The notes beneath the pieces were generated by a model. That model saw only the letters and a list, made by a program, of their open reading frames with translations. It was not told where the DNA came from and did not search any database. Positions 42,265-52,536 of a stretch of 64,000 bases of DNA are shown one piece after another. This DNA comes from Escherichia coli (GTDB lineage: Bacteria; Pseudomonadota; Gammaproteobacteria; Enterobacterales; Enterobacteriaceae): the NCBI RefSeq assembly GCF_003334405.1, contig NZ_QOWM01000005.1, one strand, 5' to 3'. The number at the start of each line of letters is the position of its first letter. The stretch's first letter is position 1. A program made the translations under genes and the position numbers.

Positions 42265-42622
42265 TCATCTTCCCCGTCCGTGCAAAACTTCACAATCAAA
42301 AAACATTTGTGATGTTAATGAATTAAAAACACCCAAAATCGATGAATTACGCCTTCCTGATCTGTTTTACAGAGTTACATCTGACAGCGCAATAGCGTTA
42401 AAGACACTCACCATCCAGCAACATCTATCATCTAAAAAACCAGAAAAACAAATAACATCATGTTTTTAAACTAATTAAATGAAATAAAATTTTAAGCCAC
42501 TCGCCATTGTTCACAATAAAATAAACTTTATAAATTTTATTTTTTTGTGAAGTCGCCAGCATCTTTTCTGTTCTTGCTGTGGTGATATAGTGGCGTCTTC
42601 AATTCAAGGACAAGAGAACGTG

Positions 42623-43513
42623 ATGAGCCAGTCAGAGTTTGATTCAGCGCTTCCGAACGGTATAGGGTTAGCGCCTTACCTGCGAATGAAGCAGGAAGGA
42701 ATGACAGAAAATGAAAGCCGCATCGTGGAGTGGTTACTCAAACCCGGTAACCTGAGTTGTGCACCCGCAATTAAAGATGTCGCAGAAGCTCTGGCGGTAT
42801 CTGAAGCGATGATAGTTAAGGTATCAAAGCTGCTGGGGTTTAGCGGCTTTCGTAACTTACGCAGTGCGCTGGAAGATTATTTTTCTCAGTCAGAACAGGT
42901 ATTGCCTTCCGAGTTGGCTTTTGATGAAGCGCCGCAGGATGTGGTGAATAAGGTATTTAACATCACTTTACGCACCATTATGGAAGGTCAGTCGATCGTC
43001 AACGTTGATGAGATCCACCGTGCCGCCCGCTTTTTCTATCAGGCCAGACAGCGGGATTTGTACGGTGCCGGAGGATCAAATGCTATCTGTGCTGATGTAC
43101 AGCACAAGTTCTTGCGCATTGGCGTACGCTGTCAGGCCTATCCTGATGCTCACATCATGATGATGTCCGCTTCGTTGTTACAGGAAGGAGATGTTGTGCT
43201 GGTAGTGACCCATTCCGGGCGAACCAGTGATGTAAAAGCGGCCGTAGAACTGGCAAAAAAGAACGGGGCAAAGATTATTTGTATAACCCATAGCTACCAT
43301 TCACCGATAGCGAAACTGGCCGATTATATTATTTGCTCACCAGCCCCGGAAACGCCGTTATTAGGTCGTAATGCCTCGGCAAGAATATTACAACTAACTT
43401 TGCTGGACGCTTTTTTTGTCTCTGTCGCCCAGCTCAACATTGAACAAGCTAATATTAATATGCAAAAAACCGGCGCAATTGTTGATTTCTTCTCACCAGG
43501 CGCGCTGAAATAA
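42623..43513 (+). CDS. rpiR: RpiR/AlsR transcriptional repressor, HTH plus SIS domain (296 aa)
   Basis: Translation from MSQSEFDSALPNGIGLAPYLRMK; start at internal ATG 42623. Confidence 0.9.
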   Translation: MSQSEFDSALPNGIGLAPYLRMKQEGMTENESRIVEWLLKPGNLSCAPAIKDVAEALAVSEAMIVKVSKLLGFSGFRNLRSALEDYFSQSEQVLPSELAFDEAPQDVVNKVFNITLRTIMEGQSIVNVDEIHRAARFFYQARQRDLYGAGGSNAICADVQHKFLRIGVRCQAYPDAHIMMMSASLLQEGDVVLVVTHSGRTSDVKAAVELAKKNGAKIICITHSYHSPIAKLADYIICSPAPETPLLGRNASARILQLTLLDAFFVSVAQLNIEQANINMQKTGAIVDFFSPGALK

Positions 43514-43571
43514 GAAAAAGGTAATTCCGCCATCGCGGAGTTACCTGTCCCCTTACCGTGAGAACATTATT

Positions 43572-44507
43572 ATGAATAAATATCTGAAATATTTCAGCGG
43601 CACACTCGTGGGCTTAATGTTGTCAACCAGCGCTTTTGCTGCCGCCGAATATGCTGTCGTATTGAAAACCCTCTCCAACCCATTTTGGGTAGATATGAAA
43701 AAAGGCATTGAAGATGAAGCAAAAACACTGGGCGTCAGCGTTGATATTTTTGCCTCTCCTTCAGAAGGCGATTTTCAATCTCAATTGCAGTTATTTGAAG
43801 ATCTCAGTAATAAAAATTACAAAGGTATCGCCTTCGCTCCATTATCCTCAGTGAATCTGGTCATGCCTGTCGCCCGCGCATGGAAAAAAGGCATTTATCT
43901 GGTTAATCTCGATGAAAAAATCGACATGGATAATCTGAAAAAAGCTGGCGGCAATGTGGAAGCTTTTGTCACCACCGATAACGTTGCTGTCGGGGCGAAA
44001 GGCGCGTCGTTCATTATTGACAAATTGGGCGCTGAAGGTGGTGAAGTCGCAATCATTGAGGGTAAAGCCGGTAACGCCTCCGGTGAAGCGCGTCGTAATG
44101 GTGCCACCGAAGCCTTCAAAAAAGCAAGCCAGATCAAGCTTGTCGCCAGCCAGCCTGCCGACTGGGACCGCATTAAAGCACTGGATGTCGCCACTAACGT
44201 GTTGCAACGTAATCCGAATATTAAAGCGATCTATTGCGCGAATGACACGATGGCAATGGGTGTTGCTCAGGCAGTCGCAAACGCCGGAAAAACGGGAAAA
44301 GTGCTGGTCGTCGGTACAGATGGCATTCCGGAAGCCCGCAAAATGGTGGAAGCCGGACAAATGACCGCGACGGTTGCCCAGAACCCGGCGGATATCGGCG
44401 CAACGGGTCTGAAGCTGATGGTTGACGCTGAGAAATCCGGCAAGGTTATCCCGCTGGATAAAGCACCGGAATTTAAACTGGTCGATTCAATCCTGGTCAC
44501 TCAATAA
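43572..44507 (+). CDS. alsB: D-allose ABC transporter periplasmic binding protein AlsB (311 aa)
   Basis: Signal peptide plus sugar-binding protein fold; context. Confidence 0.95.
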   Translation: MNKYLKYFSGTLVGLMLSTSAFAAAEYAVVLKTLSNPFWVDMKKGIEDEAKTLGVSVDIFASPSEGDFQSQLQLFEDLSNKNYKGIAFAPLSSVNLVMPVARAWKKGIYLVNLDEKIDMDNLKKAGGNVEAFVTTDNVAVGAKGASFIIDKLGAEGGEVAIIEGKAGNASGEARRNGATEAFKKASQIKLVASQPADWDRIKALDVATNVLQRNPNIKAIYCANDTMAMGVAQAVANAGKTGKVLVVGTDGIPEARKMVEAGQMTATVAQNPADIGATGLKLMVDAEKSGKVIPLDKAPEFKLVDSILVTQ

Positions 44508-44515
44508 AACTGAAT

Positions 44516-44600
44516 GATGCCGGATGATGATGCTAATGAAGTGTCTTATCCGGCCAACAAAATAACCTGAACGTAGACCTGATAAATGTAGCCATCAGGC
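44516..44600. repeat. REP-type palindromes between alsB and alsA
   Basis: gatgccggatga...gtcttatccggcc and cctgataaatgtagccatcagg. Confidence 0.7.
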
Positions 44601-44633
44601 AATAATACGATATTTCGTGCAGAGAGGTTATTT

Positions 44634-46166
44634 ATGGCCACGCCATATATATCGATGGCGGGGATCGGCAAGTCCTTTGGTCCGGTTCACGCATTAAAGT
44701 CGGTTAATTTAACGGTTTATCCTGGTGAAATACATGCATTACTAGGAGAAAATGGCGCGGGTAAATCCACGCTAATGAAAGTTTTATCCGGAATACATGA
44801 GCCGACCAAAGGCACCATTACCATTAATAACATTAGCTATAACAAGCTGGATCATAAATTAGCGGCACAACTCGGTATCGGGATTATTTATCAGGAACTC
44901 AGCGTTATTGATGAATTAACCGTACTGGAAAATTTATATATTGGTCGTCATCTGACGAAAAAAATCTGTGGCGTCAATATTATCGACTGGCGAGAAATGC
45001 GTGTCCGCGCCGCCATGATGTTATTACGCGTGGGCTTGAAAGTTGATCTAGATGAGAAAGTGGCGAATTTATCTATCAGCCACAAGCAGATGCTAGAAAT
45101 TGCCAAAACGCTGATGCTCGATGCCAAAGTCATCATCATGGATGAACCCACCTCCTCACTCACCAATAAAGAGGTGGACTATCTGTTTCTGATCATGAAT
45201 CAGTTGCGTAAAGAGGGTACGGCCATCGTCTATATCTCGCATAAGTTGGCGGAAATTCGCCGTATTTGCGACCGCTATACGGTGATGAAAGACGGCAGCA
45301 GCGTTTGCAGCGGCATAGTAAGCGATGTGTCAAATGACGATATCGTCCGTCTGATGGTAGGCCGCGAACTGCAAAACCGTTTTAACGCGATGAAGGAGAA
45401 TGTCAGCAACCTTGCGCACGAAACGGTTTTTGAGGTGCGGAACGTCACCAGTCGTGACAGAAAAAAGGTCCGGGATATCTCATTTAGCGTCTGCCGGGGA
45501 GAAATATTAGGCTTTGCCGGACTGGTCGGTTCCGGACGTACTGAACTGATGAATTGTCTGTTTGGCGTGGATAAACGCGCTGGCGGAGAAATCCGTCTTA
45601 ATGGCAAAGATATCTCTCCACGTTCACCCCTGGATGCCGTGAAAAAAGGGATGGCTTACATCACTGAAAGCCGCCGGGATAACGGTTTTTTCCCCAACTT
45701 TTCCATCGCTCAGAACATGGCGATCAGCCGCAGTCTGAAAGACGGCGGCTATAAAGGCGCGATGGGCTTGTTTCATGAAGTTGACGAGCAACGTACCGCT
45801 GAAAATCAACGCGAACTGCTGGCGCTGAAATGTCATTCGGTAAACCAGAATATCACCGAACTCTCCGGGGGAAATCAGCAGAAAGTCCTGATCTCCAAAT
45901 GGCTGTGCTGTTGCCCGGAAGTGATTATTTTCGATGAACCTACCCGCGGCATCGACGTTGGCGCGAAAGCCGAAATTTACAAAGTGATGCGCCAACTGGC
46001 GGACGACGGAAAAGTCATCCTGATGGTGTCATCTGAACTACCTGAAATTATCACCGTCTGCGACCGCATCGCCGTGTTCTGCGAAGGACGACTGACGCAA
46101 ATCCTGACGAATCGCGATGACATGAGCGAAGAGGAGATTATGGCATGGGCTTTACCACAAGAGTAA
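44634..46166 (+). CDS. alsA: D-allose ABC transporter ATP-binding protein AlsA, duplicated ABC domains (510 aa)
   Basis: Walker A GENGAGKST in the first half, LSGGNQQK signature in the second half. Confidence 0.95.
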   Translation: MATPYISMAGIGKSFGPVHALKSVNLTVYPGEIHALLGENGAGKSTLMKVLSGIHEPTKGTITINNISYNKLDHKLAAQLGIGIIYQELSVIDELTVLENLYIGRHLTKKICGVNIIDWREMRVRAAMMLLRVGLKVDLDEKVANLSISHKQMLEIAKTLMLDAKVIIMDEPTSSLTNKEVDYLFLIMNQLRKEGTAIVYISHKLAEIRRICDRYTVMKDGSSVCSGIVSDVSNDDIVRLMVGRELQNRFNAMKENVSNLAHETVFEVRNVTSRDRKKVRDISFSVCRGEILGFAGLVGSGRTELMNCLFGVDKRAGGEIRLNGKDISPRSPLDAVKKGMAYITESRRDNGFFPNFSIAQNMAISRSLKDGGYKGAMGLFHEVDEQRTAENQRELLALKCHSVNQNITELSGGNQQKVLISKWLCCCPEVIIFDEPTRGIDVGAKAEIYKVMRQLADDGKVILMVSSELPEIITVCDRIAVFCEGRLTQILTNRDDMSEEEIMAWALPQE

Positions 46167-47125
46167 AAAGCGAAGCGAGCGAGAAGAAACCGTTCAACTT
46201 TGCGCTGTTCTGGGATAAATACGGCACCTTTTTTATCCTGGCGATCATCGTCGCCATCTTTGGTTCGCTGTCACCAGAATATTTTCTGACCACCAATAAT
46301 ATTACCCAGATTTTTGTTCAAAGCTCCGTGACGGTATTGATCGGCATGGGCGAGTTTTTCGCTATCCTGGTCGCTGGTATCGACCTCTCGGTTGGCGCGA
46401 TTCTGGCGCTTTCCGGTATGGTGACCGCCAAACTGATGTTGGCAGGTGTTGACCCGTTTCTCGCAGCGATGATTGGCGGTGTACTGGTTGGCGGCGCACT
46501 GGGGGCGATCAACGGCTGCCTGGTCAACTGGACGGGGCTACACCCGTTCATCATCACCCTTGGCACCAACGCGATTTTCCGTGGGATCACGCTGGTGATC
46601 TCCGATGCCAACTCGGTATACGGCTTCTCATTTGACTTCGTGAACTTCTTTGCCGCCAGCGTAATTGGGATACCTGTCCCCGTTATCTTCTCACTAATTG
46701 TCGCGCTCATCCTTTGGTTTCTGACAACGCGTATGCGGCTCGGGCGCAACATCTACGCACTGGGCGGCAACAAAAATTCGGCGTTCTATTCCGGGATTGA
46801 CGTGAAATTCCACATCCTGGTGGTGTTTATCATCTCCGGTGTTTGTGCAGGTCTGGCAGGCGTCGTCTCAACTGCACGACTCGGTGCCGCAGAACCGCTT
46901 GCCGGTATGGGTTTTGAAACCTATGCCATTGCCAGCGCCATCATTGGCGGCACCAGTTTCTTCGGCGGCAAGGGGCGCATTTTCTCTGTGGTGATTGGCG
47001 GGTTGATCATCGGCACCATCAACAACGGTCTGAATATTTTGCAGGTACAAACCTATTACCAACTGGTGGTGATGGGCGGATTAATTATCGCGGCTGTCGC
47101 CCTTGACCGTCTTATCAGTAAGTAA
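46145..47125 (+). CDS. alsC: D-allose ABC transporter permease AlsC (326 aa)
   Basis: Polytopic permease; overlaps the alsA end by 22 bp. Confidence 0.95.
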   Translation: MGFTTRVKSEASEKKPFNFALFWDKYGTFFILAIIVAIFGSLSPEYFLTTNNITQIFVQSSVTVLIGMGEFFAILVAGIDLSVGAILALSGMVTAKLMLAGVDPFLAAMIGGVLVGGALGAINGCLVNWTGLHPFIITLGTNAIFRGITLVISDANSVYGFSFDFVNFFAASVIGIPVPVIFSLIVALILWFLTTRMRLGRNIYALGGNKNSAFYSGIDVKFHILVVFIISGVCAGLAGVVSTARLGAAEPLAGMGFETYAIASAIIGGTSFFGGKGRIFSVVIGGLIIGTINNGLNILQVQTYYQLVVMGGLIIAAVALDRLISK

Positions 47126-47135
47126 GGAATTGAAC

Positions 47136-48744
<1,609 letters not shown>

Positions 48745-49016
48745 GTAAAACGTTGGCACAGTAGCGCAATGTCCCGCTGTGCCAACGACAGGTACAATAT
48801 ATATAATAAACACATAAAACGACTCATATTATTTTCTGCAATGATAGTTTTACTGTAATTTTCCCTCTTCAGCACAAATGCCTAATAAAATGGCGCGTTC
48901 CGCTCACACTTCCACTTATTAAAGTCGCAATTTCCCAATTATGATAACGCCAGCTTTAAATGACGTATTTTGCATGGATTACATATTTACGACATAAATG
49001 ATAAATGGAGATTTAT

Positions 49017-51002
49017 ATGAATAACTCTCGGTTATTCCGTTTGAGCAGGATTGTTATTGCGTTAACTGCCGCCAGCGGCATGATGGTAAATACCGCTAAC
49101 GCGAAAGAGGAAGCGAAAGCCGCCACTCAATATACCCAACAGGTTAATCAGAATTACGCCAAATCATTACCGTTTAGCGATCGTCAGGATTTTGACGATG
49201 CCCAGCGTGGATTTATCGCCCCGCTGCTGGATGAAGGTATTCTGCGTGATGCGAACGGTAAAGTTTACTACCGCGCGGACGATTACAAATTTGATATTAA
49301 TGCCGCAGCGCCGGAAACCGTAAACCCCAGCCTGTGGCGTCAGTCGCAAATCAACGGTATTTCTGGCCTGTTCAAAGTCACCGATAAAATGTATCAGGTG
49401 CGCGGCCAGGATATCTCTAACATTACGTTCGTTGAGGGCGAGAAAGGCATTATTGTTATCGACCCGCTGGTGACGCCGCCTGCCGCAAAAGCCGCACTTG
49501 ACCTTTACTTCCAGCATCGTCCGCAAAAACCGATTGTTGCCGTTATCTACACTCACAGCCACACCGACCACTATGGTGGCGTGAAAGGCATTATCTCTGA
49601 AGCCGATGTTAAATCCGGCAAAGTTCAGGTGATTGCCCCTGCAGGCTTTATGGACGAAGCCATCAGCGAAAACGTGCTGGCGGGTAACATCATGAGCCGC
49701 CGTGCGCTCTACTCTTACGGTCTGTTACTGCCGCACAACGCGCAAGGCAATGTGGGTAATGGCCTTGGCGTGACGCTGGCAACGGGCGACCCGAGCATTA
49801 TTGCACCGACGAAAACTATCGTCAGAACTGGCGAGAAGATGATTATCGACGGCCTGGAGTTTGACTTCCTGATGACCCCAGGTAGCGAAGCGCCAGCCGA
49901 AATGCACTTCTATATTCCGGCCCTGAAAGCCCTGTGTACCGCCGAGAACGCCACGCATACCCTGCACAACTTCTACACTCTGCGCGGCGCGAAAACCCGC
50001 GACACCAGCAAGTGGACCGAGTATCTGAACGAAACGCTGGATATGTGGGGTAACGACGCGGAAGTGCTGTTTATGCCGCACACCTGGCCGGTCTGGGGCA
50101 ATAAGCATATCAATGATTATATTGGTAAATACCGCGATACCATCAAGTACATTCACGACCAGACCCTGCACCTGGCGAACCAGGGCTACACCATGAATGA
50201 AATCGGCGACATGATTAAGCTGCCGCCTGCACTTGCCAATAACTGGGCCAGCCGCGGCTATTACGGTTCTGTCAGCCACAACGCCCGCGCGGTGTATAAC
50301 TTCTATCTTGGCTATTACGACGGTAACCCGGCTAACCTGCATCCGTATGGTCAGGTGGAGATGGGTAAACGTTACGTGCAGGCGCTGGGCGGTTCTGCCC
50401 GTGTCATCAACCTGGCGCAAGAAGCGAACAAGCAAGGTGATTACCGCTGGTCGGCAGAACTGCTGAAACAGGTGATTGCCGCCAACCCGGGTGACCAGGT
50501 CGCGAAGAATCTGCAAGCGAATAACTTTGAACAGCTGGGCTATCAGGCCGAGTCCGCCACATGGCGCGGTTTCTACCTGACCGGCGCGAAAGAGCTGCGC
50601 GAAGGGGTGCATAAGTTCAGCCACGGCACCACCGGTTCCCCGGACACCATTCGCGGGATGTCGGTCGAAATGCTGTTCGACTTTATGGCCGTTCGCCTCG
50701 ATAGCGCGAAAGCTGCGGGTAAAAATATCAGCCTGAACTTCAATATGAGCAACGGCGATAACCTCAACCTGACGCTGAACGATAGCGTGCTTAACTACCG
50801 GAAAACGCTGCAACCGCAAGCCGACGCCTCTTTCTACATCAGCCGTGAAGATCTGCACGCCGTGCTGACCGGACAAGCCAAAATGGCGGATCTGGTAAAA
50901 GCGAAGAAAGCCAAAATTATTGGCAATGGCGCGAAACTGGAAGAAATTATCGCCTGTCTGGATAATTTCGATTTGTGGGTGAATATCGTAACCCCAAATT
51001 AA
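49017..51002 (+). CDS. yjcS: YjcS, secreted metallo-beta-lactamase-fold alkyl/aryl-sulfatase-like protein (661 aa)
   Basis: Signal peptide, HxHxDH motif ([11 protein letters not shown]), C-terminal SCP2-like region; start chosen at MNNSRLF. Confidence 0.88.
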
Positions 51003-51011
51003 TGTCACTCG

Positions 51012-51050
51012 CTTTTGGGGGCGCTGAAGCCCCCAAAAGTATTTATTTTA
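51012..51050 (+). terminator. Rho-independent terminator after yjcS
   Basis: cttttggggg-cgctgaa-cccccaaaag hairpin followed by tatttatttt. Confidence 0.8.
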
Positions 51051-51210
51051 AAAATATATACAGCCAATTAATAAATAAAATATATAAGTTATGAATGCGG
51101 TGGCTGAATAAAGCTATTTTTATTCATCAAGAAAATAGCCATACTGACGCCTTCAATGGATATTGATATTCACTACAGATATTGTTCGCAGCAGACAGGA
51201 TGTATTTAAT

Positions 51211-51486
51211 ATGCCAACAGTTCTCTCTCGCATGGCGATGCAACTCAAAAAAACAGCCTGGATAATTCCCGTCTTCATGGTTTCGGGATGCTCATTATCT
51301 CCGGCAATCCCGGTGATCGGCGCTTATTATCCCAGCTGGTTTTTCTGCGCCATTGCCAGCCTTATTTTGACGCTCATCACGAGGCGAGTTATTCAGCGGG
51401 CAAATATCAATCTGGCATTTGTCGGAATTATTTATACCGCCCTTTTTGCTCTCTACGCCATGCTGTTCTGGCTGGCATTTTTCTAA
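51211..51486 (+). CDS. ytcA: Small lipoprotein YtcA (91 aa) preceding mdtNOP
   Basis: Translation from MPTVLSRMAMQLKKTAWIIPVFMVSGCSL (lipobox VSGC) then a hydrophobic segment; start at internal ATG 51211. Confidence 0.75.
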   Translation: MPTVLSRMAMQLKKTAWIIPVFMVSGCSLSPAIPVIGAYYPSWFFCAIASLILTLITRRVIQRANINLAFVGIIYTALFALYAMLFWLAFF

Positions 51487-51504
51487 TCTATTTGAGACGC
51501 GCTC

Positions 51505-52536
51505 ATGGAAAGTACGCCGAAAAAAGCTCCTCGCAGTAAATTCCCTGCTCTGTTAGTGGTTGCGTTGGCGCTGGTTGCCCTTGTTTTCGTTATCTGGCGC
51601 GTAGACAGTGCGCCATCAACTAATGACGCTTACGCGTCAGCAGATACCATTGATGTGGTACCGGAAGTCAGCGGCCGCATTGTAGAACTGGCGGTCACCG
51701 ACAACCAGGCAGTCAAACAGGGCGATTTGCTGTTCCGCATCGACCCGCGCCCGTACGAAGCCAATCTGGCGAAAGCTGAAGCCTCCCTCGCGGCGCTGGA
51801 TAAGCAAATTATGCTCACCCAGCGTAGCGTTGACGCGCAACAGTTTGGTGCCGACTCGGTTAATGCCACGGTAGAAAAAGCCCGTGCCGCCGCGAAACAG
51901 GCCACAGATACATTACGCCGCACCGAGCCATTACTGAAAGAAGGTTTTGTCTCAGCGGAAGATGTTGACCGTGCAAGAACGGCGCAGCGCGCCGCAGAAG
52001 CGGATCTTAATGCCGTATTGTTACAGGCGCAGTCAGCCGCCAGCGCCGTCAGCGGCGTGGATGCATTAGTTGCCCAGCGTGCGGCGGTCGAAGCGGATAT
52101 TGCCCTGACCAAACTGCATCTGGAAATGGCGACCGTTCGCGCGCCGTTTGATGGCCGGGTCATTTCCCTCAAAACCTCCGTCGGGCAATTTGCTTCTGCC
52201 ATGCGCCCTATTTTTACCCTAATCGACACTCGTCACTGGTATGTGATCGCCAACTTCCGCGAAACCGATCTGAAAAATATTCGCTCAGGTACACCCGCAA
52301 CGATTCGCCTGATGAGTGACAGCGGCAAAACCTTCGAGGGTAAAGTGGATTCGATTGGCTACGGCGTGCTACCGGATGACGGCGGCCTGGTGCTGGGCGG
52401 CCTGCCGAAAGTGTCTCGTTCTATTAACTGGGTCCGCGTTGCCCAGCGTTTTCCGGTCAAAATCATGGTCGATAAACCTGACCCGGAAATGTTCCGCATC
52501 GGCGCTTCGGCAGTCGCTAATCTTGAGCCGCAATAA
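51505..52536 (+). CDS. mdtN: Multidrug efflux membrane-fusion protein MdtN (343 aa, HlyD family)
   Basis: N-terminal TM anchor plus HlyD-like periplasmic domain; context. Confidence 0.93.
   Translation: MESTPKKAPRSKFPALLVVALALVALVFVIWRVDSAPSTNDAYASADTIDVVPEVSGRIVELAVTDNQAVKQGDLLFRIDPRPYEANLAKAEASLAALDKQIMLTQRSVDAQQFGADSVNATVEKARAAAKQATDTLRRTEPLLKEGFVSAEDVDRARTAQRAAEADLNAVLLQAQSAASAVSGVDALVAQRAAVEADIALTKLHLEMATVRAPFDGRVISLKTSVGQFASAMRPIFTLIDTRHWYVIANFRETDLKNIRSGTPATIRLMSDSGKTFEGKVDSIGYGVLPDDGGLVLGGLPKVSRSINWVRVAQRFPVKIMVDKPDPEMFRIGASAVANLEPQ

Follow-up and report, generated by a model that had tools for sequence, protein, structure and literature searches.

The window analysed here is a stretch of 64 kb of Escherichia coli DNA, and in the region comparison it proved 100% identical to the K-12 derivatives W3110, DH5a, MC4100 and ER1709. 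The six-frame list of open reading frames places a plus-strand frame at 49005..51002, with in-frame ATG codons at 49005 and 49017. The second of these is favoured, as it is preceded by GGAG at a spacing of 5 nt, and RefSeq also starts the gene at 49017: the ER1709 gene named "alkyl sulfatase YjcS" (6318..8303 in the ER1709 region, L001) maps to window positions 49017..51002. Residues 30-661 of the product are identical to PDB entry 4PDX, "Putative alkyl/aryl-sulfatase YjcS". The locus 49017..51002 on the plus strand is E. coli K-12 yjcS, the same gene as in 4PDX, and both the gene name and the coordinates given by the first-pass annotation exactly match RefSeq. Among complete E. coli genomes yjcS was matched in 5357 of 5426 (98.7%). 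The gene is already described, as its fold, structure and in vitro activity have been published and annotated. Its features are as follows.

49008..49011, plus strand: Shine-Dalgarno sequence GGAG ahead of ATG 49017
49017..51002, plus strand: yjcS coding sequence, 661 aa plus stop, alkyl sulfatase YjcS (WP_001066019.1), from the ORF list, RefSeq and the PDB match
49017..49103, plus strand: predicted Sec (signal peptidase I type) signal peptide, aa 1-29, from hydropathy and the start of the 4PDX chain
49404..50081, plus strand: metallo-beta-lactamase-fold catalytic domain (Lactamase_B, PF00753), aa 130-355, Pfam E 7.8e-27
49554..49571, plus strand: metal-binding motif HSHTDH (HxHxDH), aa 180-185
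50190..50606, plus strand: alkyl sulfatase dimerisation domain (Alkyl_sulf_dimr, PF14863), aa 392-530, Pfam E 2.2e-56
50631..50996, plus strand: alkyl sulfatase C-terminal SCP2-like domain (Alkyl_sulf_C, PF14864), aa 539-660, E 6.4e-37

Upstream of yjcS lie alsR and alsBACEK, with the end of alsK at 48744, and downstream RefSeq lists ytcA (51211..51486), a small lipoprotein gene, followed by mdtN, mdtO, mdtP and fdhF. Hence the earlier placement of yjcS between the als and mdt operons is correct, with the addition of ytcA, unmentioned there, in front of mdtN. The spacer between alsK and yjcS is 272 bp long and A+T-rich (GC 0.38-0.43). Three elements flank the coding sequence.

48751..48787, plus strand: perfect 11-bp inverted repeat CGTTGGCACAG / CTGTGCCAACG, 15 nt between the arms, -21.6 kcal/mol, z -3.9
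48779..48807, plus strand: sigma-70-like promoter candidate GTGCCA-17 nt-TATAAT, 10/12 matches
51011..51050, plus strand: intrinsic terminator, a 12-bp stem (7 G-C pairs) with a 6-nt loop at 51011-51040, then ATTTATTTTA

The inverted repeat begins 7 nt past the alsK stop codon. It is not followed by a T-tract and hence is not a canonical terminator; it probably forms a hairpin at the 3' end of the als transcript and belongs to the surroundings of yjcS rather than to the gene. As for the sigma-70-like site, five such sites were found in the region against 5.1 expected, that is, at the chance level, and therefore this promoter is treated as a candidate only. Transcription from it would give yjcS an A+T-rich leader of about 200 nt. 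The terminator claimed to follow yjcS is indeed strong: its hairpin has a folding energy of -23.2 kcal/mol (z -5.8), and none of 200 shuffled sequences folds as well. It acts in one direction, since the T-run is absent after the stem on the minus strand. Given the upstream hairpin, the candidate promoter of its own and the strong terminator, yjcS looks monocistronic.

A scan of positions 48600-51600 against Rfam at E<=1 yielded no riboswitch or small RNA, the one sub-threshold match, to a frameshift element, falling on the terminator hairpin. An antisense reading frame at 49725..51008 (427 aa) was considered as a gene and rejected, as it is interrupted by stop codons in the SE11 allele and by four of them in the ECCNB12-2 allele; both alleles are described below.

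The regulatory data that we found in the literature examined are limited to two reports. The RpoN holoenzyme and NtrC bind the alsK-yjcS spacer in vitro, as observed by gSELEX and gel shift (PMC8743547), and yjcS is one of the genes whose expression differed in cusS mutants grown in LB (PMC10920338). Neither of them indicates sulfur metabolism. Because of the reported RpoN/NtrC binding, we searched for the sigma-54 consensus TGGCAC-N5-TTGCW with at most two mismatches, and found none in the spacer. The nearest match (48675-48690) is inside alsK, and the window as a whole contains 34 matches against 43 expected. Each arm of the 48751-48787 repeat includes TGGCAC, the -24 element of sigma-54 promoters; for the TGGCAC at 48754 the GC element is one base too near to fit the consensus. 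These repeat arms may be the source of the RpoN binding to the spacer.

The two flanks of yjcS differ in their conservation. The als operon (window 42600-48744, alsR to alsK; D-allose) is accessory, the alsC/E/K stretch being present in 3385 of 5426 complete E. coli genomes, and thus yjcS is located at the edge of a variable region; mdtNO is found in 5406 of the same genomes, compared to 5357 for yjcS. Insertion sequences (IS1, IS5 and the IS10-like ISVsa5) occur in or beside yjcS in several strains, making it a repeated target. In W3110 (L002), IS5 truncates alsK just upstream of yjcS, and in strain MB50 (L004) an IS1-associated deletion extends from alsB nearly to the end of yjcS.

The YjcS protein has the three-domain architecture of type III alkyl sulfatases, with PF00753, PF14863 and PF14864 in the expected order; the C-terminal domain also has a weak match to SCP2 itself (Pfam, E 0.048). 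Each match to a solved type III member covers approximately 630-650 residues. The closest of these is SdsAP (PDB 4NUR; E 1.3e-214, 51% identity over 629 aligned residues), followed by Pisa1 (E 3.9e-185 for the variant chain 4AV7 and 1e-182 for the wild-type 2YHE) and SdsA1 (PDB 2CFU; E 6.8e-182), and 7TL5 is a further solved full-length homologue. The proposed membership in the MBL-fold alkylsulfatase family, for which a domain search had been suggested and which an absence of homology would have contradicted, is thus borne out by strong homology and by the Pfam domains; such an absence is clearly not the case. Based on this homology and on the solved structure of the same protein, YjcS is an enzyme that forms dimers, has three domains and holds two zinc ions.

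The HxHxDH metal site noted earlier is found as HSHTDH inside the Lactamase_B domain, and it is one of only three matches to this pattern in the six-frame translation of the window. The zinc ligands known for SdsAP, namely H192, H194, D196, H197, E303, E322 and H367 (PMC5426288), were transferred to YjcS through an ungapped HMMER alignment. They correspond to H180, H182, D184, H185, E291, E310 and H355, respectively, with all seven residues identical. Hence the binuclear site composed of HxHxDH, two acidic ligands and a distal histidine is present in the YjcS sequence. Glutamate ligands near the zinc ions have been described as unique to alkyl sulfatases (PMC5426288).

The N-terminus has all elements of a Sec-exported protein: a charged n-region (R5, R8, R11), a hydrophobic core (aa 12-24) and A27-N-A29 at positions -3/-1 before K30. 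The predicted cleavage is ANA|KE, leaving KEE immediately after the cut, and the crystallised chain 4PDX begins at K30. YjcS is thus predicted to be exported by Sec to the periplasm. The first-pass annotation had called the enzyme secreted; the Sec-type signal peptide upholds this in part, although export to the periplasm, rather than release from the cell, is the better reading.

Taken as a whole, we estimate at roughly 0.9 the probability that yjcS encodes a type III (MBL-fold) alkyl sulfatase, apparently from its own transcription unit, that acts by the following proposed mechanism of export, dimerisation and hydrolysis at a dizinc site. The precursor would be exported by Sec and cut after Ala29, as suggested by the sequence and the crystallisation construct, and the mature periplasmic protein would dimerise via its middle domain. 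By homology with the SdsAP ligands, one Zn2+ would be held by H180, H182 and E291, and the other by D184, H185 and H355, with E310 binding both. A zinc-activated water or hydroxide would then hydrolyse SDS and other linear primary alkyl sulfates at the sulfate ester, releasing the alcohol and inorganic sulfate, while the long alkyl chain would be accommodated by the SCP2-like C-terminal domain and a pocket formed by Y234 and G251. This scheme follows what has been described for the family, where the attack on the sulfate ester comes from an activated water molecule and the alkyl chain is housed in a hydrophobic channel (PMC3920027, PMC5426288); in Pisa1, the water is activated by the binuclear zinc cluster (PMC3920027). 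In the cell, YjcS could serve for scavenging sulfur from alkyl sulfates or for their detoxification.

The work on YjcS by Liang, Gao, Dong and Liu (2014, Protein Sci 23:1442) reportedly goes no further in its title than "likely an alkylsulfatase". YjcS is counted among SDS-active enzymes in PMC6107682 and is listed in PMC10340364, in both cases with reference to Liang 2014. The earlier statement that the physiological substrate in E. coli is not well defined holds, while the biochemical activity, SDS hydrolysis, has already been reported.

If YjcS were mainly a secondary-alkyl sulfatase, inverting as Pisa1, or an aryl sulfatase, the activity towards SDS would be a side reaction. The name "alkyl/aryl-sulfatase" used in the PDB entry and in some RefSeq records agrees with this possibility, as does the fact that Pisa1 is nearly as similar to YjcS as SdsA1 is (E 3.9e-185 vs. 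6.8e-182). However, the substrate pocket points in the other direction. Mutation of Y246 or G263 in SdsAP abolishes SDS hydrolysis (PMC5426288), and the alignment places Y234 and G251 of YjcS at these two positions, so that the Tyr/Gly pair of the primary-alkyl (SDS-type) subgroup is retained, whereas wild-type Pisa1 (the 2yhe row) has Ser and Phe in the same columns. The second acidic ligand is Glu in YjcS (E310), SdsAP and SdsA1, but Asp in Pisa1. Moreover, the closest solved relative of YjcS, SdsAP, is a primary alkyl sulfatase. By sequence, YjcS is of the primary-alkyl (SDS) type, and we consider a mainly secondary-alkyl or aryl specificity very improbable.

It is scarcely credible that YjcS naturally acts on something other than a sulfate ester, as a different kind of MBL-fold hydrolase (for example, a lactonase, beta-lactamase or glyoxalase II): the matches to MBL-fold families in NCBIfam that would favour it (aa 119-223) are weak and fall far under the curated cut-offs (bla_class_B_core, 28.2 bits vs. 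100; GSH_gloB, 21.6 vs. 200.8), which places YjcS in neither the class B metallo-beta-lactamase nor the glyoxalase II family, while the protein has two alkyl-sulfatase-specific domains (E 1e-37 to 1e-56) and the Glu ligands described as unique to alkyl sulfatases (PMC5426288).

Returning to the type III alkyl sulfatase assignment, we compared YjcS with three characterised members of this class. In SdsAP, a primary alkyl sulfatase from Pseudomonas sp. S9 that is thermostable, the three domains are those seen in YjcS, as are all seven zinc ligands and the Y/G pair of the pocket. Whereas the host of SdsAP, a pseudomonad, degrades SDS, yjcS stands alone on the chromosome of an enteric bacterium and is not known to be linked to surfactant catabolism. 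The founding member of the third sulfatase class, SdsA1 of P. aeruginosa, is a full-length homologue of YjcS. SdsA1 is secreted and enables P. aeruginosa to grow on SDS, whereas in the literature examined we found no such phenotype for E. coli; neither there nor in the present analysis was yjcS tied to sulfur starvation or growth on this detergent. Like YjcS, SdsAP has an N-terminal signal peptide, and SdsA1 has a binuclear zinc site with glutamate ligands and a substrate site superimposable on that of SdsAP (PMC5426288). Pisa1, an inverting sec-alkyl sulfatase of Pseudomonas sp. DSM6611, has the same fold and domain order as YjcS, but it prefers secondary alkyl sulfates and differs from YjcS at the three positions given above (Asp at E310, Ser/Phe at Y234/G251). 

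The following comparison of alleles concerns other E. coli strains with complete genomes rather than the K-12 sequence of the window. The identity of the yjcS coding sequence to K-12 is at least 99% in 1415 genomes, 95-99% in 2299, 90-95% in 1469 and 80-90% in 174. By comparison, only four genomes fall below 95% identity to K-12 for an mdtN-mdtO stretch of equal length. We observed two divergent types of yjcS alleles.

In the first, SE11-type, a segment of approximately 630 bp (window ~49200-49835; 7184-7819 in the SE11 region, L003) is replaced by a sequence with about 85-86% identity to K-12; outside it, both the gene and its flanks match K-12 at 97-100%. The dS in this segment is 0.69, compared to 0.06-0.08 in the remaining gene, and its dN/dS is 0.067. 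The segment spans the substrate-pocket half of the catalytic domain. It is present in approximately 1640 of 5355 complete E. coli genomes (~30%), with a bimodal distribution (only 21 intermediates). A close donor of the segment was not found, a protein search yielding only fragment proteins and no donor above 91% identity.

The second, ECCNB12-2-type (4818-6803 in the ECCNB12-2 region, L005), was found in 178 genomes (~3%). It has 70-85% nucleotide identity to K-12 over nearly all of the coding sequence (window positions ~49217-50917), with flanks at 97-100%, and its dS relative to K-12 is 0.9-1.0 with dN/dS about 0.1. Residues 273-633 of this type are 95-96% identical to Pseudocitrobacter proteins, compared to 83-84% for the K-12 type. 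Judging by the sequences, this allele seems to have come from another species, a Pseudocitrobacter-like donor, through allelic replacement in which the crossovers lay a short way inside the two ends of the gene. Gene conversion from an intragenomic paralogue is not supported as the source of the divergent alleles, as megablast with the ECCNB12-2 allele gave 5362 places in 5357 records and no near-identical second copy.

The zinc ligands and Y234/G251 are kept in all alleles compared. Since dN/dS between the divergent alleles is 0.07-0.10 and all catalytic residues are retained, yjcS is under purifying selection. One could speculate that the three haplotypes (K-12, SE11 and Pseudocitrobacter-like) are non-neutral, with differing substrate ranges kept by niche-specific selection, but we regard this as rather unlikely. 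If the haplotypes do differ in substrate range, the real substrates would be not SDS but sulfated lipids or alcohols that occur naturally in certain hosts or environments. The allele replacement at yjcS also provides natural variants that can be used for substrate-range tests.

Apparent occurrences of yjcS on E. coli "plasmids" were discarded, as most of the records measure 0.37-4.9 Mb and resemble parts of chromosomes more than mobile plasmids. Strain HCP4S3_I4 (L006, 1318-3303) has a recombinant of the SE11-type and K-12-type yjcS, with the switch near window positions 49600-49800; in this copy codon 410 is an internal stop, and the annotation treats the gene as a pseudogene. Finally, about 96 genomes have a second, more distant match to the yjcS segment. 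Probably, this is the yreP-linked yjcS paralogue reported from E. coli SMS-3-5 and CE10 and from extraintestinal Salmonella serovars (PMC9426430).
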